This document shows positions 1-58,318 of a stretch of 64,000 bases of DNA, one piece after another. The stretch is from Heptranchias perlo. Lineage: Eukaryota. Both the position numbers and the translations under genes were made by a program. The notes below the pieces were generated by a model. The model was not told the DNA's origin and made no database searches. It worked only from the letters and a program-made list of their open reading frames with translations. The stretch spans positions 4,712,001 to 4,776,000 of the forward strand of contig NC_090370.1 of assembly GCF_035084215.1 (NCBI RefSeq). The letters run 5' to 3'. Numbering within the stretch: position 1 is the stretch's first letter; every line of letters begins with the position of its first letter.

Positions 1-361
1 CCATTAAAAAATACATATATGGACAGTGTCAAGCTTGGCTATGGATCTCCATAGTTGAGTAATTGTCAATATTCATACCCGGGTTAATAAAGAATGACCA
101 CTTGGGCAAAGTACTAAAGGAATGTCGCCACCTGTGGAATCATACATCAGCACGAGTCATTGACTTTAGGAGGGACAAGAGGATAAAACGGGGTGGGACG
201 GGAGGAAGAATAGGATTTTAAGTTCATCTCTAAGACTTTTCACATTATAAAGTCCCAATGTTAGCTGCAAAACAGGAGGAATCACAAAGTGAAAACCTGG
301 TGTTTACTCACAGAGCGACAGAGAGAAAAGAAATCAAAACATAATTTACCCTCCCTCATAC

Positions 362-425
362 CTTTAAGTGACCAACTAAAGCTTGCTGCTTACTCCACCT
401 CTCCAATGGCAAAAGATGCAGTGAC
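362..425 (-). other. Putative 64-nt non-coding exon (exon 2) of an unidentified leftward-transcribed gene that continues beyond the window start
   Basis: On the - strand a strong polypyrimidine acceptor (ttttccttctttctctttag|GTCAC) and a donor (AAAG|gtatga) bound the segment; no ATG inside. Confidence 0.55.
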
Positions 426-559
426 CTAAAGAGAAAGAAGGAAAATAATAACAGTTACATTTGTAAATAAATTTTTAAATCCAGTTGCCAAGTAAGATTT
501 TTTTTAAATCAACCATTTAAAACTTGTTTCTTTTGAATCACATAACCAGATAGACTTTT

Positions 560-915
560 AGGGCTCCATTAGCTCAGTGGGTAAATGCATCAGCTGGTGT
601 GGTACTGCACTACATAGACCAGGAAGGTTTCAGCTTCAATCTTCAGTCATAGCTGAATTACCTGATTTCATTCATTCAAACTACACTGTTTGTATCATTC
701 ATGTCAGTGAGTTAGGGAAGGACAGGGTTCTCACTCCTTCACTATCACTGACGCCTGCTGGATCAGGCTCAGCTTTGACGATCTTCTCCTTCCCCAAGTT
801 CAACAGCCTGCCGACATTCACTATGAGGACTCAAAAATGAAGAATGGTGTATAGCCACTTGGGTGAAGCACCAGAGAGTAGGCAGCGACCTTGGTACTAT
901 ACCCCAGCAGGCTAG
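560..915 (+). mobile_element. tRNA-derived SINE (family A of this window)
   Basis: tRNA-like head (agctcagtgggtaaatgc...) and body motifs (agcctgccgacattcact, gccacttggg, tactatacccc) shared with many copies, e.g. 41800-42180. Confidence 0.7.
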
Positions 916-1469
916 CAACAGAAAACTAGCTTCTGGAGCAAAAGTAACCAAGTGGCTTCAAATAATTTTTAAACAGGAAAGTTAAATCAAAATGTAAAAA
1001 TTATATTGGAATCTCGTAATTGAAAACGATACCATCAGCTTGGGTACTTTTTAAATGCTCCTTATTTAGATTTTAATTTAGACATTTTTTACACACTGAA
1101 TCCACTATCCCTTTCTTTCAAGTCGGTCACATCAGGGGAGCACTACGGTTGTAAGCTTCAACATAACATTGGACATGACTGCTTTCCTCAAACAATTCGC
1201 GTTCTTAGGCCAACCGGCATTCATAGGAAACTCGCGCGAAATCGTGATGTTGACAGCTCTGGTGGGGGAAAGTTCTCGAACTTGCTGCGAGGCTTCAATT
1301 GCGCTTCTAGGCCTCAATTGACTTACACAAATTGACATAACTTCCAGCGCATAAATGAGGAAAAAATACCCTCCTTCATTTTTATTTTAACCACAGAACC
1401 AAATAATTATACTCGACCGATACTGGAATAAAAATAATATATAAAACACAGAAATAGGGGCACATTTAC

Positions 1470-1560
1470 CCGCACGGTTCAGCTTTTTTTCACTCAGTCC
1501 TCCAAACACAACGAACATCGACTCAGGTCCTCCGAGACAAGAGCAACCGCAGAAGACGCT
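1470..1560 (-). other. Putative first (5'UTR) exon of the leftward gene; 5' end approximate
   Basis: Donor CGTGCGG|gtaaat at 1469-1464 (- strand) inside the CpG-rich region; it could splice to the 362-425 exon. Confidence 0.5.
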
Positions 1561-1774
1561 ATCGAAGCGTCTCTACAGCCATCGTTCGATGAACAACAAC
1601 CCGTTTAGCAGCTGGTAAAGTCTGTGTGGTTGGGGATTATTTTGCGTTACAGCATTTTCAGACATTTAATTTCAAAATTTATCTTTGGGGGAATTCAGTT
1701 TAAATAACAGTTTTAATTTAAAATAGTGGATCAAATTCTTAATCTGACCGAAAGAAATTAAGCATACGAGTCGC

Positions 1775-1859
1775 AGTTCTTCGGTGCTAAGTCGCTCTTG
1801 TCTGGGAGGACCTGTTTGATGCTCGTTGGAGGAGTGAGTAAAGGAGCTGAACCGTGTAT
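1775..1859 (+). other. zc3h10: Putative non-coding first exon of zc3h10; 5' end approximate
   Basis: CpG-rich, with candidate donors gtgagt (1834) or gtaaat (1860). The zc3h10 coding exon has an acceptor at 8614, so an upstream exon is required. Confidence 0.45.
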
Positions 1860-2234
1860 GTAAATATGTCCCTGTTTTATGTCTATTGTGTAACCGTTCC
1901 GACCCACTTTGTTAATTACTCCGACAGTTTAAATGTTCCAAGTGAGGGTTTAATTCCGTGTTCGTGTGTATGGCAGTTATTTCATGCAGCAGAAAGTTGA
2001 GGCCTAGAAATCCCATGACAGCCTTCGAATCCTCGGCAAGCCTGTTACTGTATAAGATGTGATTCACAATAAACAGCTCTATAAATCAGACTTTATAAGC
2101 ATTGTTTTGAGAATTCATGGATCACCCATGCATTTGAAACACTAAGGATTTAATATCTGCTATTAATAGGTTGTATGACTTGATAAGACTTTTGTTTCTG
2201 GGCGAAATGCTTTAAAGTTTGATTTTTATTTAGT

Positions 2235-3065
2235 ACAATAGCTTGCACTTGTATAATGTAACAAAACGTCTCAAGGGGCTTCATGGGGAGGGGGTTGGAC
2301 ACTGAGTGAGAGTTAAGTGAGGTAACTGAAGGTGTGATTAAAGAGATGGGTTTTGAGGAGGCTTTTGAAGGAAGGGAAAGGGGTAGCAAGGTGGAAGGGA
2401 TTAGTGGTGCCAGGGGGTCTGTGATGCACAGGTAGTCCAGGCTCAGAAGAGCAGAAAATGTGAACTGAAACCTAGGACTGGAGAAGATTCCAGAAGTAGG
2501 TTGGGGGTGAGGCCATGGAGAGATTTGTAGATGAGAATTTTGAAATCGCTGTGCTGTGACTAGCCAGTGGAAGTCGGTGAAGACCTAGGTGATTGGGACT
2601 TAATATGGGCTAGGATGCTAGCAGCAGAGGTTTGAGTAAATTGGAGTTGGAGTTTGTGTAGGTGGAGTTCTGGGGGCCAGTGAGGGTAGCATTGGAGAAG
2701 TCAAGCTTGGAGGTGATAAAGACATGGAGGGGAGTTTCAGCAGCAATGGGGATGAAGTAGTGATGGAAGTGGTTTTTGCAATTAATGCAATATGAGGTTT
2801 GAAACTCATTTCAGGGTTTAACAGGGTGCTGAGGTTATGTGCTGTCAGGTTTAGCCTGTGTATAGTGAAATGCAAGCTAGGATGCAGAGTTCTGGGTGGG
2901 AGCTGAACAGGATGGCTTTGGTCTTGTCAATGTTGAGCTGGAAAAAGTTTTGGCTCATGATTTGATATCAGACAAGCAGTTGGATAACACAGCAAGAATC
3001 ACAGGTAATGCTGGAGAGGTAAAGCTGAGTATCATCAGCATATGAAAGCTGACCCCATGCTTGCA
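2235..3065 (-). mobile_element. L2/CR1-clade LINE 3' fragment, decayed
   Basis: The - strand encodes degenerate RT C-terminal motifs (HNLSTLLNPEMSFKPHI; an ADDTQLYLS-like stretch; QLNIDKT) followed by an L2-type tail. Confidence 0.7.
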
Positions 3066-3344
3066 GGTAATGTAATTTTCAAATGAAAATATTTTAGATT
3101 AGAGTACAGTACTCAAAATATAACTCTTTCTTAAACATGTTGGGGAAATTCCTCTTCACGGTCTTGCTGGATAGATTCATTGTCAAATGAAGCAAATCAG
3201 CTTTCTAGAATTTGCTAGTGGATTATTGTCTGGAAAAGAGAGAAAGGCGCTGGGGATGAAAATGACCCTAAATATTTGTTTCTCAGACACTACTATACAA
3301 CTTTGAATACGTGCTTGTGCATAAGAGGTTACAATTTATTTTTA

Positions 3345-3710
3345 TCAGGGCTAGACAGACTGGATGCAGGGAGGATGTTTCCCCTGACGGGGTGGGGGGG
3401 GGGTCTAGAACGAGAGTTCACAGTCTCAGGATACGGGGTAGGGCATTTAGGACTGAGATGAGGAGAAATTTCTTCACTCAGAGGGTGGTGAACCTGTGGG
3501 AATTCTTTACCACAGAAGGCTGTGGAGGCCAAGTCACTGAATATATTTAAGAAGGAGATAGATAGATTTCTAGACACAAAAGGCATCAAGGGGTATGGGG
3601 AGAGAGCGGGACTATGGTACTGAGATAGAGGATCAGCCATGATCATGTTGATTGGCGGAGCAGGCTCGAAGGGCCAAATGGCCTACTCCTGCTCCTATTT
3701 TCTATGTAGC
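3345..3710 (+). mobile_element. CR1 LINE 3' end
   Basis: HSLRIRGRAFRTEMRRNFFTQRVVNLW motif plus the 3'UTR ending gggccaaatggcctactcctgctcct. Confidence 0.85.
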
Positions 3711-3879
3711 TAAGCTATTTGACATGCACTAACTCATGTCACTCTAGTAGAATAGCTTTTATGCAAATTAGATACTCATGGGAAAAGAAGAGGTGAATCC
3801 TTAATTGATAACTGAAAAATTTCATAACTATGATGCGTATTTGTAACAAGTTTTTTTGAAGCACTCCCCTTTTTTTCCC

Positions 3880-4260
3880 TCCTTCGTGCCAATCTTTTCC
3901 TGAAAACAGTGACTCATCTGGATGTACAGTTCCACAGGTGCTGGCAGCCCTCTGGTGCTTCACCCAAGTGGACATTCTTCATGTGTGAGCCTGAGCAGTG
4001 AGTACCAGTAGGGTATTTGACCATGAGGAGTATTGCAGCCTACCTGATCCTATCCTTACCTAGTGTCCACATATGCACATTTCCAGCAGGTTAACAGAAT
4101 AATAATCAGGGACAGGAACTCAGCCACACAATGTCACCACTCTGGAGATGCTGATAGCTATTATAGTATCAGCCTCTCTGTACAGACCAGGGATTGAACC
4201 TGGGACATTACTGCCTATAGGCTGTGTGCCTGATAGTAGGGAGCATTTTCCTCCTGAGCT
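3880..4260 (-). mobile_element. tRNA-derived SINE (family A)
   Basis: Reverse complement of family A body and head motifs (cccaagtgg, ttccagcagg, gggattgaacctggg). Confidence 0.65.
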
Positions 4261-6049
4261 GCTGATGGTGAAAAACTTTTTTAAAAAATTATTTCTTCCA
4301 GCAAGTTGCAGTTTCCGTACTCGTCACTGTCCTCTGCTCTTTGCCCCTAAAGTGGTGGTTTGATGTTTGCTAGGAACCCAGTGGAAAAGTGTGGAGATCA
4401 GCAGTACAAGTGCACAATCCAAATGTTTTCTGAAATTAGATAGTTGCATACAGCAGTATTATAGTCACCCATGCCTCTGCCAATGCCATGATGTACGGTT
4501 TGCTAGGAGGCATGTGGTTTGCTTCCCAATGTTTTTCTTGCTTCCCACTCTGAGGAAGAACCTGGCTTTTGCTAAATGATGTGACTGAGATCAGGAAACT
4601 TAACATTTGGAGCGTTTGCAGGTGCGAGCCTGCATTCTAGCATTCCATGGCCCAACATATTGGTGTGCTAATCCTGCATGGCAATCTGCAGTTGATTTCA
4701 ACCCTTCCCAGGGTCACTGAGGCCAAATGTAGCATCCTTGCTGCTGCCCTGGCTGGGAACAGCTAACTCAGCACAGACCGAGGGCCAAACCTGAGTCTTT
4801 GTCCATTTGTATGGCTCAGTTTCTCAGTGGATTAAAATCCTTGAGTATCGGAGGAACCCCTAGTCTTTCCAGTAATCCTGTTTTTCTAGAATTTCACACC
4901 AGTTTACTTGGTGCAATTATGTATTTGTTTACATAGCATTTTAGGATCATACGTTGATGCAATAAATCTGTTGGTATATAGTTATTTGGCATAGTAGTGT
5001 TGCACACTTCCGAATTATGATATTTTATTGGTGGTGGCCATGAGGAAGGTGGGTAGCTAGGCAGAGGCTGCAAACTGATTACCCTACCTTCTTTGGGTGT
5101 GTGGCTGGTTTGCTGTTCTTGTGATGCTTAGAGCGGGTGGTATCTTGATATATAGTATGATCTTTTAAAAATCATGTATGGTATTGTGGGGCGCAGTTCC
5201 TCCTGATTTTTTCCTTTTTATCAAAGCACGTCTGGCCTAAATTTAATTAGGAGGTTATGGTCTCTGACCTACTATACATTTTTGAGGTGTGGAGGATTTC
5301 CCTCAAAAACTAAGGTTGAAACTTGTAAATCTATTACTGAATTTGAACTGATCTAATGTTTTGTTAGCATCTGTCACCCAAGGTATCAGCAGTTGTTATG
5401 GCTTACCATTATTGCAAGAGGAAAATAAAGTGCAAAATGCAGGCTGGTTATTATGGGTTTTATGCATTAATATCTCACTTGCTCATGAGTGTGCTTTATT
5501 TTGAAGGCTGCTTTCTGCGCCTTCACGAACCTCAGGGCTTGCTGTTTAACCCTGGATTTAGCTCAAGGCGCCAAACATCTATTTGACTTGTCGTTCTCAC
5601 CCCTCCCCTCCCTTTAATGCAGCTGTATTCATGAGCATCCAGTCGGTTCCACTTGTCAAGCAAGTGCTGCTGTTGAAACTCTTTGTGCAACTACAATGAC
5701 AGCTTTTTACAAATTTGTGGGGATTGCAGTTCATCTTATTGAGAGCTGATACCCTCTACTTCTGCTACAAGGATGCTTCCAATAATGGGGGGGGGGGGGA
5801 GGGTGTTGGGAGATGTTATTAACCAGTCTTGACATTTATAGTTCCAAAAAGAATTATCAAAGAACATTTGTCCACACTACTGAACTTTCATCATAGTTGA
5901 TATGCTACAAGGAATAGAGTGTATGCCCTGTACTTCATTCAGAAGAAGGAGGATCAATTCTCTATTCTGCTGTTGGTGTGAATTGTATTATTGGTTTACA
6001 GGCTGCAGTGGGAACAGATCAGAAATGAACAGCAATCATTCTATGATTC

Positions 6050-6670
6050 TAGAATCATAGAATGTGACAACATATTTGAGACACCAAGCCTGTGTTTGTT
6101 TTTCTTCACAAGCCACCTAGTCTAATCCCACCCTCCTGCTCGCTCCCCATATCATTTAATATTCCTCCTCTTCAAGAACTTTTAAAAAATTTATGGCTTC
6201 AGCTTCAACAATGGTTTGTGGCAGAAAATTCCACATTTTAATCACCTTCTGTATGAGACATTTTTCAAACCTCCCTTTTATTTCTTTTTGTGATTATCTT
6301 AAATTTGTGCCCTCTCATTACCATCTCACTGACCAGTGGAAACAATCGATCACTATTTACCTTATCATAATCCTGAAGACCTCTATCAGGTCACCACTCA
6401 ACCTTCTCAGCTCCAGTGAAAAAAGCCCTAACTTCTCAAGTCTCTCTTCATAACTGCAACACCTCATCCCTGGTAACGTCCTAGTGAATTTACGCTGCAC
6501 CTTCTCCATTGCTTCTATATCCTTCCTATAATGGAGCGCCCAAAACTACATCCAATACCCCAACTGCAGCCTGATTAAGGTCTTGTACAAGTTAAACATC
6601 ATCTCCTTGCTTTTGTATTCTGTGCCTTTGGATACAAATCCAGGGATTCTGTTTGCTTTTTTTATGACCT
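6050..6670 (-). mobile_element. CR1 LINE 3' fragment
   Basis: Antisense CR1 signature (gacctctatcaggtcacc; the + strand reads ILKTSIRSPLNLL). Confidence 0.75.
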
Positions 6671-7549
6671 TAAGTTAGTGTAACTGAAAATATTTTAATA
6701 GTGAATATACTTGATGTATCTTATCTGCAGAATCAGCTTTTCACATGTAAATGTACTTCAACTTTTTAAAAATAGCAGTTTTCCACACTTATTGTATGAG
6801 GTGGTGGAATAATTTATATATATTCAAAATATTTTCAATTTACAAAGCTTTCCCCCAATGCAGTACAGTTTACTCTACAAATATTTTATATATCTACTTG
6901 AGTTGTCTTGATGCCAATGTCTATGGATATATGGAGGTCTACTGAAGCCACTTTTTGTTAGTGAAATCAGTTTGTGATCAATCGAGTAAGTCAGGGATCA
7001 CAAATGTATTTTTTAATGTGTTACTGACCTAGACACGATGATAAATAATTACTTTTACCTTTCTGGGTTGCTATCATAAATGGGGCAAGGAGCTTCACCA
7101 TCCGTACCACTTTGAAAAAAAATTAAAGAAAAGCATTATTTTTTTTAAAAAAGCTAAGTTATCAGCATATTTGTCCCCCAGAGTGCTTTAATAATCTTGT
7201 TATTTCAGCTGTGTACATTTGTTCAGTTCCCTGACAGACCGGTTAGGGCTTCAAGTCAATTCCTTATCTAATATCAAAGGCACTTACTATTTTGACAAAC
7301 AAATACACCAAAAAAGCAAAATAATGCTCAAGGTAATCATCATTTTTATCAATCATTTTTTCAAATGGATATTCCTGGCAAAAGTACATTTCTGGTCTTG
7401 TTCCCCCAAATACTCTCCATTTTCATCATTTCACTTTCTTGTGTGTCCTCTCTTATCATGTTTCTAGTTCTCTGATGCTTTAATTTTTCCTGTTTCTTTA
7501 GGTTAATACTTGTTAATCATGATCGCAAATTTTGGATCCCACTTCCAAT

Positions 7550-7830
7550 TATTTTCCCTCTTCTCCTGAAAGCGCTAACTCTTGTTGGGGTGCATGCATC
7601 AGCCTCTTTCCCAAGTAGTGGCCATTCCTTATATGTGAGCCTGGATAATAATTATTGGCAGGCTATTTTATCATGGGTGGTATCACATCCGAACCTGGCC
7701 TGTGTGCACCCAACATCCACAGATGTACATTTTCCAGCAGGGATCGCTAGATTGGAATCAGAAATGGGAACTCTGGCTATGTTTTTTGTTTTCCTTCTTT
7801 AGCCTGGGGTGCAGAGGGCTATTGTCATCA
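7550..7830 (-). mobile_element. tRNA-derived SINE (family A) fragment
   Basis: Contains ccaagtagtggccattccttatatgtgagcc and ttttccagcaggg. Confidence 0.6.
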
Positions 7831-8661
7831 AATTAATTCCAAACAAGCAGTTGTTTTTGCCATAGTCAGCTGGTCTTATTTTTAACTCCTTATTTCAGTT
7901 TTCTCTCATCTTTAGACTTCTCATACCAATGCTAGGGATCATTCCTCGGCTGAAGAAACATATACCTTCCTGCAGACCTATTAATGCCATACAGCAAGCA
8001 GTATCTGGAGGTGTGTGAAATACTATGTGGTGACATGCCCTCTGATATTTTTGAAAATATGCATATAGATTGGGTGGGGATAAGCAATTCACAATGAAAA
8101 TCCTTAATCTAAAAATTACTTTTCCAGAATTTTATATTGGCCTGCATATAGATACAGTTGTTTAATGTATCCCAGACTGATGAAGTGAATAGTCTCCTTT
8201 CTCTGCTGGCTATGATGTCCAAAATGAAATAAGTTTGGCAAATCTCAAACAAGCTCTTAATGGACATAAATCAACAGCACAAAACAACCTATAATTTAGT
8301 ACAAATTAGCACTCTTCATTCCCCAACTCAGATAGGCCCCAAGGATCAATGATTGGGGAAATGGAAGTGTGATACTGGTAGTTTTCTGACGTTCTAGTGA
8401 AGACAAATTGTGGGGAAGCACATCTAACCTGTAGTACAACTAACCTAGTAATGTTTGATGCCAACACCGGACACACACATTTGGAAACCTTTTTCATTCC
8501 CACCACAATCATCGTTCAGCTTGCTGAGCACAAAATGCAGTGATTCAAGTGACACTTACTTTGTGGATTAATTCCTCCTTCTCTGTAAAGACGTACCTTG
8601 ATTTTCTTTTTCAGATGTTTTTGTGTACAGTGGCTGAGAAGCACAGAAATAGTCTGTGAAG

Positions 8662-9867
8662 ATGCCGGATAAAGATAATTTATTTAACAGTGGTAATGAC
8701 GAGGCTGGCCACAGTTCAGATGATATTTGCCGAGACTTCCTGCGCAATGTCTGCAAACGTGGCAAGCGCTGCAAGTTCTACCACCCCGACATTAATGAGG
8801 TGTCCGACTTGGGCGTAAAAAAGAATGAGTTTGTCTTTTGTCATGACTATCAGAACAAGGAGTGCACTCGCATCAACTGCAAGTTTATTCATGGGACAAA
8901 GGAGGATGAGGAACATTACAAAAAGACAGGAGAGCTTCCCCCACGCCTGCGCCTTACAGTGGCCATGGGTCTTGGCCTTTCGCCTTCTGACCTCTCTTTT
9001 AAAAAAGGTGAGGTTCCAATCTGCCGAGACTACCTGAAAGGTGACTGTCAAAGAGGATCTAAATGTAAATTCCGGCACTTAAAACGTGATGAATATGAGT
9101 ATGAAAACAGAACTTTGGAGAGATTGTCACGCGACCAAGTGCTTTCTCCTGTAGTGCGTCGATATGACCCATTCACTGACCTCTATGACAGTGATCGCTA
9201 TACTGACTACGACCATGTTCTAAAGAGGAGAAGAGTGGATGGCTTGCGATTTGAAACATATGATTTTAATATCCCAAACCCACGTCCAGTTGACCATCGG
9301 TTTCTAGAGGAGGAGAACTTGATGCTCCGAAAGCGTGTTGAGGAACTCAAAAAGCAGGTCTCCAATTTGATGGCAACTAATGAGGTACTTTTGGAGCAAA
9401 ATGCACATTTCCGCAACCAAACTAAGGTGGTGACGCTGACCTCCACTCCCACAGCGACAGAGCAAACACTGGCAGCACCAACTGTGGGCACAATCACCAA
9501 TTACAACCACGGTATAGCACAGACTCACACCACTTTGAGCAGCCAAGCACTTCAACCGCGACCTGTCACCCAGCAAGACCTAGTGGCAACTGTTGGAGCT
9601 TCTGCTGCGCCACCTACCAATGCTGCACCCCCAACAGCACAGCATCTTAATCCTGAGATTGCTTCTCTCCCGGCTGCGCTTGCCCAGACCATTGCCCAGG
9701 GGCTGGCACCTCCAGTTTCCATGGCCCCGGTGGCTGTCTCTGTTGCGCCAGTGGCAGTATCAATTGCACAAGCACTGCCAGGAATCACCATAAGCCATGC
9801 CACCACTCCAATGGTTACTTATCCAATTGCATCACAGAGTATGAGGATAACAGCAATTCCTCACTGA
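8662..9867 (+). CDS. zc3h10: Zinc finger CCCH domain-containing protein 10 (401 aa, single coding exon)
   Basis: Three CCCH fingers (CRDFLRNVCKRGKRCKFYH, CHDYQNKECTRINCKFIH, CRDYLKGDCQRGSKCKFRH), a coiled coil (LEEENLMLRKRVEELKKQVSNL) and the C-terminus PMVTYPIASQSMRITAIPH, all matching vertebrate ZC3H10. The true ATG is at 8662 (MPDKD); the ORF track starts at a GTG. Acceptor ttttctttttcag ends at 8614. Confidence 0.97.
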   Translation: MPDKDNLFNSGNDEAGHSSDDICRDFLRNVCKRGKRCKFYHPDINEVSDLGVKKNEFVFCHDYQNKECTRINCKFIHGTKEDEEHYKKTGELPPRLRLTVAMGLGLSPSDLSFKKGEVPICRDYLKGDCQRGSKCKFRHLKRDEYEYENRTLERLSRDQVLSPVVRRYDPFTDLYDSDRYTDYDHVLKRRRVDGLRFETYDFNIPNPRPVDHRFLEEENLMLRKRVEELKKQVSNLMATNEVLLEQNAHFRNQTKVVTLTSTPTATEQTLAAPTVGTITNYNHGIAQTHTTLSSQALQPRPVTQQDLVATVGASAAPPTNAAPPTAQHLNPEIASLPAALAQTIAQGLAPPVSMAPVAVSVAPVAVSIAQALPGITISHATTPMVTYPIASQSMRITAIPH

Positions 9868-10374
9868 GGAGCCTTGAGATAAAAAAAAGAGTTGCATAAA
9901 GGCTTTAGAAAAGGTTCTGTGTTCCTATGTTGCTTCCCATGATGCGTGTTATATAAATATACACGCCAAAGCCAAATAGGATTCTGATCCAGCATTTAAT
10001 TCTATTTGTACCAAAACTATTCCTCTTCAATCCATTATATATTATTTCTGATTTCTGAATACTTGTTTTACCCCCTCCTGTTTTAGTGCTCAGCTCACCA
10101 ACTCTTGTAAATCCATTGCCTAACTTAATGTAAAAACAACTGCACGTGTCACAGGAACATTTTCTTATAAAAGGTTTCGTGTTTAGAATAAACTAGTCAC
10201 TGGGCTGTGGTGCTGCGCAAAATATTCAAACCTCCTCTTCTTCTTTGTCTCCCATGCTTGGCTATTTGCATTCTTGACGCAAAAATAAAATTTCATAGCA
10301 TATGAACTTGTAAATTTTCCTGGCAATAACGAGCAAAAAAGAATTAATTATTTTGAAACTAGGATTTTTTGTGG

Positions 10375-10505
10375 ATGTTGCTGGCGCTGAATGACTGCCG
10401 CGTTTTCCCAGATAGTAGTCATTGCAATCCAATAAGTAATTCTCTGTGAAGCTTTTTGGGATGTTTTGATGATGTAATGGGATGCTATATAAATACAAGT
10501 ACTTT
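10375..10505 (+). mobile_element. Deu-type SINE 3' tail fragment
   Basis: ctgccgcgtttt...gctttttgggatgttt...gctatataaatacaagt tail. Confidence 0.55.
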
Positions 10506-13500
10506 TTAATCCTCATCAACTATCCAGATATTACACTTTAGTCCTCTCTCAATTTTGGAAATACTCATTATATTGCTTTTCCAAAGTGACTGTAATTAAC
10601 TTGGAAGCCATTACAATGATCTTATTTCTGAATGAACCTAAAGTGTACTTTCAACTTTGTCATTCTTGGAGCACTGGATGTCCAGTGTGTAACATAAAAG
10701 TCTATTCAAATCCAGCCACACTGATGGGATTAAAATCTTAGCTCTTTGCTAGCTGCAAGGAAGATACATGAAGTGAGTTTAAGGAATCTGAATTCAATTT
10801 CTGCTGGACACCAGTCTACAACACAAAACTGTCCACAAGTTGGCAGTTTTACTTGGGCCAGTTTGCTGGAAGAAATGGGAAGGGGTTGGGGATTACGCTG
10901 ATTCAGTAGGGGTGCTCTTCTGAGCTTGAAGTTAAGGCACATTACCAAGACATAGTAGAGGGAGCATTACTCTGCATCTAGCCTGTCTCTGCTCAATGCC
11001 CTCAGCACTGATGTCACATATCTTGAGTTGTGAATTCACCAAAAATAAAACAAAGGAAGTTTCTGTTTACCTGATGCTGGCAGTAGTGGCAATAAGGGAA
11101 ACCAAAAGTGGGGGTGGGTAAAAGTGGTTAAAGAACAAGTGTCAATGATGGTTGCTCTGCATGCAGTTTGGGTCAGCAACACAGGAAATGCAAACCTTTT
11201 GCAAATCCTTGTTGAAAAAGAATATGTATTTCCACACCAAATATTGTAATTTGTATATGAATACAAGAAATGTATAAATTGTTCTATAAAATGTATGGAA
11301 TATTAAAAAGATGATACTATATAGTACACATAAGACAGCTTAACCGCTGACTTATTTGGGACCAGAATGGAAGCTGCCTTTGAAGTATGCTGAGCCAAGC
11401 TGTAACAGATTGGTACGTGAACATTCACATTCAAGATCTCTTCCTTTTTTTTAAAAGCGACTTTGTAACCAACTGCACTAGGAACAGAGTTTGCCTTTTG
11501 CCGGCCAGCTGGCTTCAAACCAGAAATTATCTTTAAAGGCATCGTGAACACGGTGTATGTTTTTTTTAATATCGATTAACTCCTGGAAGTCCATAACCAG
11601 GTTCAATAGAAAACTACAGGAAATTAGGGTAAAATCTATTGGGATTTTGTGTTCAATTTCTGATCCATTTTAAAAACCCTGTGCAAACCTTTCCTATACC
11701 CACACGACCAGATGATTGATTTGTCTACATTTTCTTTAAGTTTGCTAAGATTATCTTATTAAATTTCAACATAATTAACAGTGTGAATGGTGAAAAATGG
11801 ATTTTGTATTCACTGTTAAAACACCCTGATGTAACTGTGTGACAATTCAATTTCATTGAGCCAGGTGCTCATTTTTAAAGGGGTAGCTGTGACAGGGAAC
11901 CCTAAGGTTGGTTACACTTGTGTTTTTATTTAATCAGCTAGTTATTGGGTACATTTAACCTCAATTGTTGCTTTTCTGTTAACCTTGTCTCCAACTTGTA
12001 TATAGTAGCTGTTTAGTCTTATGAAATCTGTACGTGATGCTTGTCGGATTCTTGTGGGGTCTGGAAATTAGAACCATTGATCTAATCTTGCACAATTGAA
12101 AGAAGCTTAAGTGAGCAAATGTGTTTTTATTTGCAGTGTTTCCAATGTAATCCAGATAACTGAAACTTCTACTAGATACTTGTAGTAGCTCTTCAGCTAC
12201 TGTGCCACAATTTATATTTTTCAGGGGTGGGGGGGAGGGAATTTTCATGTCACTAGACACCCCTTCCCCTTTCCTCATGCTGCAGTTGTGAACTTCCAGG
12301 ATTCCCTGTGACTGACATTTACACAAGTACAATATTGTGTATGTAATTATGCTTATCAAACCATGAATGTTCAAGAGCCCTTCAAAATCAAAAGGGAGTC
12401 CTAATTTGTTTGATTTGATTTAAGAACGCAAACTGCCTCTTCACCAAGAGCTCCGGGGACATCACAAACTAATACCACCATGTCACGGTGGTGTCAGCAG
12501 TTAAAATAGTGCAAATAATAGATATTGCATTATATTCAAGGAATGTTCAAACTAGTTTGTGGTTTTTAGTTATAGGATTGACATATACGAGTGAATATAA
12601 GTATTATTCAATGTACAGTGGAATCCTGTTGTATGTAATGAGTCAGAATATGACAAACTTGCATAAATCAAGAATCGCTGTACCAGTACTGGCTAAGTCA
12701 GGATCAAATTGCAATTTATAACCATTTGCTTATATCAACAGAGTTTGTTTGTACTGCATCATATTTGCAGATTTGACTTTGATTCCTAGCAGACTATCTT
12801 CACGTTGTTGAATTAACATCGCTGTCATTACTAATGAAGTTTTTACGATATTCTGTTTATGGAAAACATTGAGTTACTGTTTTATAAAGTAGTATTTGGC
12901 TGTGGTATCATCTATTTGAGGATTGTAGTGGAATTTTTTCATCCTTCATAATATGCCAGGTTGGAGCAGGTTATTAACAATTGCTAATATTTGTATATCT
13001 GTTGAAACGTATTGACTTTTACACTTGGATAACTGATAATTTGGCAAAGATTGTAAACAAAAACGTGTTCCCCCACCCCCACCAAAATTTCAGTGTTGCC
13101 TAACCTTAAATTAACTTGTTGAGGAAAGGGTCTATTTTGCCCTGTGTGTAAAGTGAAAGTTTTTAGTAAAATAATTCTGTCATTATGAACCAATTTAGTT
13201 TTGCTTAGATATTCAGGAATCATATTAACCCTTTCTAGCCATAGACAGCTTTGGAAGGTAAAGACCAACAGCCCAAATATGGATATGTAATTCTGAATAA
13301 AATATCCTGACATGACAATGAAAACCCCAGACTTGCATAGTAAGGTACAAAAGAAATACCAACCAGATGAAAGAATCTCTCTCTCAAAATCTACGGTGTA
13401 TGTAACATACACTAAACCTGTAATTATGTTGATGCTTATTATTGTGTCTTAAAATCTTTGGCCTACGTGGCACTCGACTGTACTCTGTTCTATGATAAAA

Positions 13501-29912: not shown

Positions 29913-31413
29913 TACTTTACTGGTAGATTGGTGGCTTCACTTTGAACTGATAATAGGGTGCTCAGAGCTCCTAATATGAAAACTGACCCGCCTACCTGTG
30001 GGTTCAATTCCTGTCTGTTACATTAGAGGGGGTTTTTGGTCGTCTCCACATGCCTCCAGCAGGCACAAAGAAGATTTAGCTGTGACTGTACTGGCATCTG
30101 TTCTTCACGACCATGTCATTAGACTTTAAAGGTCCTAGGCCTGCAGTACTGTAAACCATGCAGACCCCAGAGCCATTCCAGAGTCACTGCAGCTAGCAAT
30201 GCAAACGCGCACACTATATAGGGAGCTTTTGAACTCAATCAGCTGTATCTCCAGAACGAACATGAATTCACAGCTGAGTGAAGCTTTGCTTTTGTCTTTT
30301 TTTTTAACTTTATTTTCCATTTTGAACTCCAGCAATTTACAACAATAACAAATGTGTACAAAATCAAAAGCACCGCGTGCTCCCTGTCGCACCAGCTAAT
30401 ATCTCAAGCAGACTGGAGGTTTCATAAATCTTTAGATATATTTATAAGACCCTGAAAACGTCCAGGCTATGTAATGGTAGATTTAACCCACGAGGCCTTT
30501 ATTTAAAATAAAATTCCGAAGTAATGTAATCGCATAAGATAAAAGTAACACTCCAAATAAAACCACAAGTCAACAAACTCCATTATTTTGGACCTGAATT
30601 GAAACAGAAATTAAGATTTCCCCTTAAAATGATTTATCGTTTGAAATACAAGAAAAAGGGTATCCATCAAATTGATGGAGTATTCCGAGGCTGTCATTTT
30701 GGATTATCCGAATAAATATTCATCTCAGAACCACTCAAAATAAATCAGCAAAGATCTCAAAACACACCAGATATTTAACTTGCACTGTAAAATAAGAATC
30801 ACGAAAAACTACTGTTACTAATGATTTCAGTAATAATTTTTAAAAAGCAAAGCGAGCATCGGGTGTGTGTTTAAGGATTAACCCATTAAATACTGTTTAC
30901 ATGTTTTCCTCTTTGGCCCATAGATTAAGACTAGAGTTATACTGCATTCTGTGCAATCTCAAACCCTTGCATTATTATTTCCAAAAACGTTTTACCAGAG
31001 TTCCAAATGTATTTTTCTTTCAAACATTAATTTGCCAATTAGATAAAGTTTAATTTTTACAACAGTTTTGTTTCACTGTCTGTATAGATTTCTGATTAAT
31101 TTATCCTATCATCTTTACTACTTCTTAAGATGTTAGTTAATGTTACCTCAATCCATTCTCCAGGATATTTCACATCTCAAGCCCGTTACTTCAATAAAGA
31201 AAACTTTTAAGAGTCATATTTTGGTCTCTACACGTTTACACTCGTTATATTAACTGCTTCTTGTTACTATCCTTTTCAAACATTGATTTTCCAGGACATT
31301 TACCATTTTGCTTCCCACTTTAATATTTGTTTTCCTAATAGGGTTTTAGTTTGTACAAATTCATATTTTAACTTTTTTCCTCCGTATAAGTGCATGTTTG
31401 CCAATATATTTAC

Positions 31414-31776
31414 CGTGTTGAGCCCCAGGTTGCCCCGTACCGATGGAGGGGTGACCCCATACAGCACAGCTGCCCCCGCCACTGCCCCCAGGAGCTGAGC
31501 TGCCATGTACATTACACAGCGGAACATGCTCAGCTGCGCCCCCAGCAGGAAGGCGAAGGTAACGGCCGGGTTGAGGTGCGCCCCGCTGACATGTCCAACC
31601 GCCTGTACCAGGGCAGCCAGGACAAAGCCAAAACCCAGAGAAACCAGCAGCACGTTCACGGGGCCCGGAGACCATCGCATGGTAAAGCCCAGTCCAAAAA
31701 ACACGAAGAGCATGGTAGCAAAAAACTCTGCAAAGACTGCCCTCCAAAAGGGCATGGATTTCAGCTCCCACATCAT
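31414..31776 (-). CDS. mip: Aquaporin-0 exon 1 (363 nt; canonical MWEL start at 31773)
   Basis: (M)[20 protein letters not shown]...[16 protein letters not shown]...VRGNLGLNT|gtaaat. Exon sizes 360/165/81/186 give a 263-aa MIP. Confidence 0.97.
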
Positions 31777-31891
31777 CCCGATCTTCGAAAGAGCAGACTA
31801 TTAAAAAAAAACAGAAAATAAAAAAAAAAGTGATGGAATTGTCTCCTGGCTCCTCAAACGTTTCCCCCAATTTTAATTGCACAGAATGAAG

Positions 31892-36590: not shown

Positions 36591-37039
36591 TCCTTAGCCT
36601 ATAAGGCCCATAAATGTAATTATGATGTGAAGGAGGTGAATAGTTATAGATGAAGAGAGCTTGATACCTTTGATGAAGAGGGTGGTTGGTGACATCATGG
36701 TTAAGCATTCTGAACAGGGTTAGCACCTTAATGGTCTTAACATTGAAAATAACACCCTGCTTGTCTGCTTACTTTCCAACTCTGTCTATATCTGTCAATG
36801 GTAATTCAGTCACTACTTGCCTTTCAGATGGTGAATTAATTACTCCTGTAGAGGATGTCACATCAACAAAAGCAAGATATTTTTGATGAGATCCAACAAG
36901 TTCCTGATGAGAAACCATGTAAGATTACGCATGCTTTCCTATGTGCAGATGTGACTTGAAGATGAACATCTGTTTGTCATGACCTGGCAATTGAGTCCTC
37001 TGTGTCCTGCATTTGATTCAACAGTTGGACAGATATGCC

Positions 37040-49526: not shown

Positions 49527-49745
49527 TTAGTTGTGGTCCTGCACTTTTGCAGTCTGTTTAGCTCGCATTGCGGACTGAGTGACCGTGAGTAAGGATGATC
49601 GGGACACGCTGGCGGTTTCCACAATTTCAATATCTTTGCAGGTGATACAGGCAATGAGCTTTTCTTGGGATGCGCTGGAGGCAAAAAAGAACTCATAAGA
49701 AATACCACCGAGGACAGCACCAAGGATAGGGCCAATCCAGTACAC
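49527..49745 (-). CDS. aqp14: Aquaporin-14 exon 5 (219 nt incl. stop)
   Basis: ttgcag|VYWIGPILGAVLGGISYEFFFASSASQEKLIACITCKDIEIVETASVSRSSLLTVTQSAMRAKQ...; Aqp14-type C-terminus. Confidence 0.92.
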   Translation of the reverse strand: MYWIGPILGAVLGGISYEFFFASSASQEKLIACITCKDIEIVETASVSRSSLLTVTQSAMRAKQTAKVQDHN

Positions 49746-52581: not shown

Positions 52582-53617
52582 CTACAGAAAATAAACAAAC
52601 ACAGAAATCAGTGAAACCTGCTGCTTTCCGTGGAGCTAAAGAGGCCATTTTACAAATGTTATGCTTCCATCATGGAGCTTCATTTGCTGCCAATGTGTAT
52701 CGGGAATTCAGACGCATGTTCCCCAGGATCGTCTGTCCATAATGGTCTTGGGGACTGCCTGCCTGAATCCCCGATATGCACTCTCGCTCTGCAAAGCTCC
52801 ATGGTGGGAGCACGAATTAGTAAAATTACCCGTTAAATTTGATCTGATTTTAGTGACTGAATAGGAAACACAGACCAATCCCAGCACTGCTCCCATACTT
52901 AAAGGCAAACAGAGTCTGCTGAATCACCTTGGGACCTTAAATATTATAAAGGAAAAAATATTTACATTTACTGGTGCTTTTCAATCATCCCTCTCTGTCC
53001 TATTTTGTGCTTTAGAACTGTTGGTTAAAGGTAGACATTTTTTGTAGATCTCCCCAGCACCAGAAGGACACCTGCAACCACACCACTGTGACATTTTTCA
53101 ATTCCTATACCAGCCCATTCTTGTGGCATCTCTGAGTGAGATTGCCAACTTAGGGACAATTTTGTGTTGTGGACCCATGTATACTCGGAACTGGATTGAG
53201 ATTCCCCAAACTGATTTCATGTTGGGCCCTTGTTGCTGAGCTAGGATTGAACTAGGTGAAAGGACAGTGCGCTAACCTCTTGCACCACACAGTCCCCCTG
53301 AACTCAGAATTATATCTCAAACCATATCACTATGTGCTCAATGTTGAATTGCCCTATGGATCCAAGGGACATTTACAGTTCAAAAGCCTGGAACTCATAG
53401 CTTATGTGCTGAACTTAGATAGGAGTTGGTCTCTAAAAGCACAAAACAATGGGACTTTCTTATTACTATTGCACTGAAAATTGGCCCAGTGTGTAGTGGG
53501 AATCCATTTCCCTCTGCCATTCACTGTGAAGGAAGCTTGTTTCTTTGATGTAGAGGAAGCTTTTTTGTGCCATGGCACAGTACCACTGGTTAAACAGCAG
53601 ACATTTGTGGTTCTTAC

Positions 53618-53782
53618 CGATGCCAGGATTCCTGCTGTCAGGCTGAAGGCTATTGCCAGACTGCCAGGTTCTCCCACTTCCCTACGTCGATGACCATCCA
53701 CAGCAAATATAGTGAAAACCAACTGGAATGTGGCAAAAGCCTCCATTGCAAGTGCTTGGCCAGCATTTCCATCTTTGTTGAT
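53618..53782 (-). CDS. aqp14: Aquaporin-14 exon 3 (165 nt)
   Basis: gagcag|INKDGNAGQALAMEAFATFQLVFTIFAVDGHRRREVGEPGSLAIAFSLTAGILAS|gtaaga. Confidence 0.93.
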
Positions 53783-53944
53783 CTGCTCGGAAACACATGA
53801 AATCATATAATATTGACACTCCCAGGATACATAGAGGAAACCATGTCTGCATAATGAGAGCAGAATTTCTAATTACTGATTGAGACTGTAATAAAATGCT
53901 TTGCATAGATCTTGTATGTTACACAATCATACAATCATGAACTG

Positions 53945-57800: not shown

Positions 57801-57961
57801 CCACCTCCCAAAAACAAATTAAAAAAGCATTTTGTCTGCAATATCCCCGGTGAAACAATTTTTTTTTGTTTTGTTTGGGCTCCATTTTGGGAAAAATGCA
57901 TCTCTATTGTAAATCAACAGGGAAAATATTATGATAAATGCAGTAACATAAATGGACTCAC

Positions 57962-58318
57962 CATGTTAACTAAATGCCTTGATGTTGACTTGATCGGCAG
58001 TGACATGTAGATTATTCCTGATCCAATCACAGCTCCAAGACACTGAGCCAAAAGATAGGACACAAACTGGAGAAAATCTAGTTTCCTGGTGCACAAGAAT
58101 GCGAGTGTGACAGCCGGGTTCACCTGGGCACCACTAATCTCTCCAAAACAGTGAATCAGGCCGACAGCAGAAAACCCAGCAGCTACAGCCACCTGCATCA
58201 GCACTGGAACTCCATCTTCCTGTCCAGGGGCAGAGGCACCCAAGATAACTGAGACCAAGACCATGGAACCAACCAGCTCTGCTAAGACTGAACGCCAGAA
58301 CCTGCGACTCCTCAATTC
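57962..58318 (-). CDS. aqp14: Aquaporin-14 exon 2 (357 nt)
   Basis: cttag|ELRSRRFWRSVLAELVGS...CFGEISGAQVNPAVTLAFLCTRKL...RHLVNM|gtgagt. The GEISGAQVNPA motif is characteristic of Aqp14. Confidence 0.93.

Follow-up and report, generated by a model that had tools for sequence, protein, structure and literature searches.

How two divergent genes came to begin with mirror-image copies of the same first exon is the question raised by a 64-kb stretch of DNA (the window, G000:C49:4712001-4776000), near whose left end two inverted arms, modules L and R, flank a short spacer upstream of zc3h10. ZC3H10 is a CCCH zinc-finger regulator that binds RNA and DNA, with roles in mitochondria, thermogenesis and interferon responses. 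We favor, with a probability of about 80%, the reading that the arms are spliced first exons of zc3h10 and of a paralogue, P1, that an ancient whole-gene inversion-duplication likely set the two genes head to head, and that promoter conversion has likely taken place in the surrounding cluster of paralogues.

Transcripts of the two arms

We compared the arms by local alignment, with dinucleotide shuffles as the control. Read on the minus strand, 1290-1556 aligned with 1778-2024 on the plus strand with 174 of 237 aligned bases identical and 40 gap positions, and the score of 122 was matched by none of 300 shuffles (mean, 35.8; sd, 4.0; maximum, 53). The colinear inverted arms that a preliminary description had placed at 1305-1544 and 1794-2009 are thus real, and its four anchors (20/21, 12/12, 13/13, and GTAAAT 6/6) are exact at their coordinates. 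It was also right that the arms are unlike the repeats elsewhere in the window (score of at most 40 against 34 other 1.7-kb pieces, both strands) and that they are CpG-rich, the observed/expected ratio being 1.0 to 1.08 in 1001-2000, where the GC content is 40%, versus mostly 0.05 to 0.35 in the flanks. The spacer's self-complement score of 40 came from an AT-rich match and fell inside the shuffle range of the arms, a range used here without a matched control. A perfect 28-bp palindrome is present at window 6037-6064. Searched with Rfam at the gathering threshold, the 64-kb window gave no matches, snoRNA and snRNA families included.

We then used contigs from four runs (two studies, organisms A and B, with X1 to X3 representing one sample) aligned to 1-12000; the runs were taken as RNA by a tool's guess, none being on record as RNA, and the joints have GT-AG ends. 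On the left, a joint from 423 to 1468 with CT..AC ends was present in 4/4 runs and delimits intron 426-1469. A 580-nt X2 contig consists of 130 nt of the P1 exon, 62 nt of exon 2, and 388 nt corresponding to 1468-1855. The loose end of an X2 record having the same run, length, and depth as this contig matches the P1 coding exon with 0 mismatches, and 130 nt is the exact distance from the AG acceptor at about G000:C49:4704930-4704931 (the P1 ATG is at 4704882). From this match and the fitting distance we identify the left gene as P1; a transcript from the left arm reaches the coding exon of a zc3h10 paralogue, one of the possibilities raised earlier. On the right, a 1,390-nt X1 contig joins 1562-1855 to 8615-9710 with 0 differences and is the sole contig with the zc3h10 joint. 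The single-exon reading frame of zc3h10 (8662-9867) is the only intact plus-strand coding unit nearby. Contig joints on each side thus show, as had been proposed, that both arms are first exons spliced outward. Of the GTAAAT donors proposed for the two arms, the left one (1469) held, but the right one did not: the spliced contig ends at 1855, with a GTATGT donor at 1856 rather than at 1860.

The spacer, too, is covered by unstranded contigs (1562-1855 in X1, 1468-1855 in X2, and 1468-1614 and 1586-1855 in X5) and so is not untranscribed throughout. Since these contigs span it, the 5′ ends of both transcripts probably overlap around 1560-1615, as judged from contigs that carry no start-site information. 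The coordinates of the features are collected in Table 1.

Table 1. Features of the zc3h10 locus (plain positions are those of the window)
Feature	Position	Strand	Remarks
Exon 2 of the left transcript, non-coding, 64 nt	362..425	-	Spliced to the P1 coding exon
Left arm, module L	1290..1556	-	P1 non-coding exon 1 (3′ part), donor, ~180 nt of intron 1
AGGCCTAG in left arm	1307..1314	-	Sequence
Left splice donor GTAAAT	1464..1469	-	Contig joints; ends intron 426-1469
Spacer	1557..1777	strandless	Centre of CpG-rich bidirectional promoter, contig-covered
Right arm, module R	1778..2024	+	zc3h10 non-coding exon 1 (3′ part), donor, start of intron 1
Right splice donor GTATGT	1856..1861	+	Intron 1856-8614, X1 contig
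AGGCCTAG, ZFX/ZNF711-type motif in the conserved intronic 13-mer	2000..2007	+	Sequence; candidate site
zc3h10 coding exon	8615..9867	+	ATG 8662, 401 aa, three CCCH fingers
Alternative downstream exon start	36828..36857	+	Likely non-coding; X2 loose end, 0 mismatches, AG acceptor
Another alternative downstream exon start	49642..49671	+	Joined to right donor, loose end
P1	G000:C49:4703239-4704882 (L002:1239-2882)	-	548 aa, six fingers, about 7.1 kb left of the window
P2	G000:C49:4667888-4668464 (L006:5888-6464)	-	Broken: stops and frameshifts
Module E	G000:C49:4647551-4647790		Inverted copy of 1768-2007, 235/240; in intron 1 of P3
Tandem exon-1 motif	L008:6345-6434 (D) and L009:1090-1174 (F)		
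C41 copy	G000:C41:22101592-22102560 (L024:5592-6560)		GC-rich, near contig end, lacks finger 2, two fingers

Paralogues and their upstream modules

A tblastn search with zc3h10 returned five copies on contig C49 and one on C41. On C49, zc3h10 lies on the plus strand and the four copies to the left of the window, P1 to P4, are all on the minus strand. P1 shares 57% identity with ZC3H10 and reaches six fingers because its first CCCH finger is present in four 53-aa tandem copies. A protein search found a record identical to it, named "zinc finger CCCH domain-containing protein 10-like" (Heptranchias perlo), and its orthologues in sharks and rays are 86 to 93% identical, despite the long branch that separates P1 from zc3h10; their accession numbers often adjoin those of zc3h10. 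P3 (226 aa) lacks finger 2 and has two fingers, P4 (279 aa) has three, and both have truncated C termini; their orthologue clusters comprise 13 and 16 sequences, respectively. Coding DNA is 69 to 77% alike among the five C49 copies and 72% alike between P2 and P3. The P2 C-terminal remnants resemble a 248-aa chimaera paralogue, and its promoter tract is 99.8% identical to that of P3. In the four runs the P3 contig (L008:3098-4227) had a depth of 115 to 741, versus 6 to 57 for the zc3h10 contigs; P3, with its two fingers, may be the copy chiefly expressed in these samples, contig depth being a poor measure.

The arm itself proved not to be the two-copy feature described at first. A sensitive search of 464 kb found it six times (R, L, C, D, E, and F), within about 81 kb of this locus, and nowhere else. 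All five coding copies are preceded, in their own orientation, by a homologous module: C precedes P2, D and E precede P3, and F precedes P4. D is the spliced first exon of P3 in X3 and X5, and C, which precedes P2, is identical there; no second module besides C was found upstream of P2. The exon-1 motif GGGAGGA(CC) occurs twice in tandem in D (and C) and in F, and once in R, L, and E. A plus-strand exon with a donor also lies within the C/D tract (L008:6520-6824; L004:1780 onward), spliced in X3 to an exon at contig position 4683780 that, by eye, resembles a decayed DDE transposase. Since this plus-strand exon splices out, the C/D promoter is bidirectional too.

This distribution bears on whether the arms could be the terminal inverted repeats of a decayed DNA transposon or MITE co-opted as a promoter, an origin that inverted arms flanking a short spacer would fit. 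Genome-wide, with very common words skipped, the left arm had one match, the right arm two, and the D tract four (three in the cluster and one 46-nt piece elsewhere), and the copies occur one arm at a time, in each case ahead of a zc3h10 coding exon and enclosing a splice donor. Dispersed copies in large numbers, with their arms paired, were looked for and not encountered, and we regard a transposon origin as scarcely tenable.

The coding exons of zc3h10 (plus strand) and P1 (minus strand) are homologous, in keeping with the old inverted duplication first proposed, but the acceptor regions are homologous as well, so whole genes were duplicated and not, as had been suggested, a promoter/exon-1 unit alone. 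The same finding argues against capture of a promoter through an inverted copy of the exon-1 unit. For such capture, or for palindrome-like conversion from arm to arm, speak the exact blocks shared by R and L (20/21, 12, and 13 nt), which are longer than those of either with D or F, and a pairwise R-L score of 68 bits versus 37 to 57 for the others. In the shared columns of a four-way alignment, however, R-L identity was 142/239 and R-D identity 149/239, so the special closeness attributed to the two arms disappears, and R-L module identity (156/219) equals the coding identity of zc3h10 and P1 (801/1,121). We therefore consider capture or arm-to-arm conversion, judged from one genome, very improbable. 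Because R-L identity equals coding identity and R is no closer to L than to D, the mirror pair needs only descent plus selection on short blocks; as these alignments read, the mirror is ordinary paralogy following an old inverted gene duplication.

The duplication appears to be very old. On one Callorhinchus scaffold, three adjacent accessions correspond to a P3 orthologue (74%), the 248-aa copy, and zc3h10; a six-finger P1 from chimaera was absent among the matches listed. In a 34-row tree, from which P2 was left out and in which P1 rows were trimmed to the last finger-1 repeat, P1, P3, P4, and the two chimaera copies formed a clade with support of 97/95; the P1 and P4 branches are long, and the inner tree is unsure. 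Since this clade holds chimaera copies, we infer that the cluster predates the chimaera-elasmobranch split and that the duplication separating the arms is likewise older, the split being put at about 400 My in PMC5519329. Beyond P4, the minus strand carries exons that match the SMP/C2 part of a bird ZC3H10-ESYT fusion model, and from this placement the minus-strand copies likely keep the ancestral orientation, so that the most conserved copy would be the inverted one. With vertebrate ZC3H10, the locus shares a single coding exon, CCCH fingers, a conserved coiled-coil region, and an ESYT-like neighbor; it differs by the extra paralogues of cartilaginous fishes, with six (P1), three (P4), or two (P3 and the C41 copy) fingers.

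The C41 copy has orthologues in sharks, rays, and chimaera and is possibly a whole-genome-duplication copy. We considered and rejected a retrocopy that carried exon 1 along: there is no module match within 30 kb, the copy has its own acceptor, and its orthologues include chimaera. A long tandem repeat elsewhere on C49 (G000:C49:4557051-4560044) has three minus-strand frames open for 920 to 998 codons. Among the papers listed, our search of the literature on zc3h10 and on sharks found no description of the cluster, although supplementary gene-family tables may list the expansion. It comprises strongly conserved paralogues, in cartilaginous fishes, of a gene that regulates mitochondria, thermogenesis, and interferon responses, and orthologous proteins are present in about 20 shark and ray genomes.

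Near-identical promoter tracts

Two pairs of modules share tracts of much higher identity. R (1768-2007) and E, 66 kb apart, are 98% identical, and the 5 of 240 sites that differ all lie near the edges, with 0/190 in the center; the C/D tract, in the P2 and P3 promoters 32 kb apart, is identical at 958 of 960 positions. Both tracts end sharply, with flanks that have no detectable homology. Apart from the internal repeats of P1, they were the only matches of at least 84% between paralogous units; the other matches at this level look, by appearance, like interspersed repeats. Sharply bounded tracts of such identity (235/240 and 958/960) inside paralogues with 69 to 77% coding identity point to conversion restricted to the promoter modules.

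The flanks can also be taken as insertion-like, since those of E and C lack detectable homology to the flanks of their partners, and ordinary paralogy would then suffice, with E and C as small, recent, one-off duplications and no repeated conversion behind them; for C/D, there is no sign that an older module once stood at C. Comparison of the two organisms weighs against this. In organism A, unspliced contigs cover both E junctions with 0 differences. Organism B has E as well, on an X6 contig of depth 3.1 that reaches 35 nt into E's own flank, so E joined to this flank probably predates the A-B split. Relative to R and E of A, B's R and B's E share four substitutions (1888, 1895, 1909, and 1957), a 1-nt deletion, and a 6-nt longer form; these differences are among those listed, and B's E derives from that one contig of one run, whose middle may be a mosaic of R and E reads. 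Because the 6-nt longer form is also present in L, A's R and E share a derived 6-nt deletion, which B's R lacks. The deletion postdates the A-B split and the pair of loci is probably older, and copying between R and E would therefore be required; a mosaic would make the shared B variants less telling, whereas the argument from the derived deletion would stand. Paralogues closer within than between species, as expected of concerted evolution, were thus found for R/E in one relative.

For C/D, organisms A and B disagree at 13 of 354 sites of the D tract, versus 2 of 960 between C and D. At the A-B rate, differences this few have a binomial probability of 2e-4 for R/E and 2e-13 for C/D, with A-B rates drawn from two short low-depth contigs; C is known from the assembly alone, and only D was seen in organism B. 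C sits upstream of P2, where a module is expected and where no second one was found; P2 is 72% alike to P3 in coding DNA. Taken together, these data make the insertion-only reading unlikely. Conversion may also reach further back: D and F are 84% alike, and the module quartet favored RL|DF by 30:3:4 sites versus a star-like 9:12:15 for coding DNA. This grouping of modules, which coding DNA does not support, suggests an older exchange between D and F. No splice joint from E to P3 was found in the 4 runs, in which short branch contigs may be filtered. A low-depth E-type variant at 1785 was considered as a sign of transcripts starting at E and rejected, as the contigs run unspliced into D's intron.

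We propose that zc3h10 and P1 would have stood head to head on one CpG-rich promoter since the ancient inverted whole-gene duplication, with selection on the exon-1 motif, the donor region, and the intronic AGGCCTAG site keeping the arms ~70% alike. Repair of double-strand breaks at open CpG-island promoters would copy short tracts between paralogous modules, with exchanges between R and E, between D and C, and earlier between D and F. With a paralogous module as its template, such repair would leave all but the promoter tract unchanged, so that one promoter could be reset to another's with the proteins left untouched. According to PMC5519329, open CpG-island promoters attract recombination where PRDM9 is lacking or partial, and the SSXRD domain of PRDM9 is missing in some cartilaginous fishes. 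Our genome search for the SSXRD domain gave no match, and its control likewise matched nowhere.

The nearest precedent is SIGLEC11/SIGLEC16 in primates, head-to-head paralogues with conversion that includes upstream DNA and first exons and, as here, high within-species identity per lineage (PMC5701461). There the tract is about 2 to 3 kb long, includes coding exons, and belongs to a long homologous block 9 kb apart (PMC5701461), whereas the zc3h10 tracts measure 240 and 960 bp, are non-coding, lie 32 to 66 kb apart, and have unrelated flanks. The zc3h10 paralogues, moreover, diverged about 400 My ago, and the pair that was converted is not the one that stands head to head. From the sequence comparisons, the mirror is explained by known processes, and promoter-restricted conversion around it would be a new variant; the literature on conversion of non-coding exons, as searched, yielded nothing. 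The locus would provide a clear natural example of conversion limited to the non-coding promoter modules of very old paralogues. It opens to direct comparison both promoter-directed recombination as a way of reshuffling regulation among duplicates and the 240-bp piece from exon 1 to the ZFX site as a portable promoter unit.

The conserved intronic motif and alternative exons

The 3′ end of the R/E identity tract falls exactly on AGGCCTAG. The 7-mer AGGCCTA occurs in 6/6 modules, and at 7 columns it is the longest stretch of intron that R, L, D, and F share unchanged (permutation p 0.002, a post hoc value, the motif having been seen already and the modules cut to end at it). In F the sequence is AGGCCTAA in place of AGGCCTAG, and in D the complete 8-mer is found only on the opposite strand. 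Within 464 kb, 7 of 15 AGGCCTAG sites fall inside modules or tracts, 4 of them independent, and the genome has two Zfx_Zfy_act genes. PMC5848610 reports that this ZFX/ZNF711 motif is enriched at 240 bp to each side of the start sites in CpG islands, with binding mainly at +240. The zc3h10 modules resemble the promoters described there (PMC5848610) in having AGGCCTAG downstream of the start region, in CpG-rich bidirectional promoters and in both directions; they differ in that the published promoters were described in human cells, whereas the zc3h10 island, a candidate, has only 40% GC. The candidate motif lies 195 to 228 nt downstream of the exon-1 GGAGGACCTG, but contigs reach further 5′, and the zc3h10 contig extending back to 1562 would set the right motif near +440, not +240. 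On balance we lean slightly toward AGGCCTAG being bound by ZFX/ZNF711 about 200 to 250 bp downstream of the start region. It is plausible, as the preliminary description held, that the conserved short blocks are retained regulatory motifs.

The right donor is also joined to exons other than that of zc3h10. Besides the two in Table 1, two lie beyond the window, near G000:C49:4788408 and 4788551 (76408 and 76551 on the window scale); loose ends of X5, X2, and X6 gave the 49642 exon and these two. Each of the four was found in one of the four runs, and they are likely non-coding. X6 (organism B) has a further loose end at the P3 acceptor, 66 kb away, carrying an exon-2-like 25 nt (23/25 versus 364-388; one run only). 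First exons may be common to more than one paralogue. Chiloscyllium plagiosum records name P1 "isoform X1" and P3 "isoform X2," and those of C. punctatum label P4 "X1" and P3 "X2." Such labels would fit gene models with common 5′ exons, but they also occur within one gene (Hemiscyllium and Stegostoma rows) and most listed rows are unlabeled, making them a weak hint.

If a non-coding 5′ exon is indeed spliced to two or more paralogous coding exons of this tandem cluster, the arrangement recalls OR5V1/OR12D3, clustered single-coding-exon genes that share 5′UTR exons according to PMC3566163. Exon sharing in the zc3h10 cluster may be a minor route. UGT1 and PCDH clusters combine variable first exons with constant last exons; the layout here is reversed, and each zc3h10 paralogue keeps its own module. 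A broader reading, in which the locus is a promoter-exchange cluster with interchangeable modules, splice routing to several units, and repeated copying of 240- to 960-bp CpG-island tracts, is tentative, and we think it rather doubtful. If it were true, the chondrichthyan zc3h10 locus would be a set of four or five single-exon units with differing finger numbers and interchangeable modules. The copied module would span the exon-1 motif to the ZFX site and pass between genes whose proteins split 400 million years ago, and expression programs could move between paralogues independently of protein evolution.

Aquaporin (MIP family) exons lie at window 31300-31797 and 57929-58318 (minus strand) and also at 53402-53872, a region crossed in antisense by plus-strand exons that are spliced to the zc3h10 first exon. 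For several sharks, a 358-aa isoform of zc3h10 is annotated (P0139 and related) that has another N terminus and lacks finger 1, which implies splicing inside the coding exon.
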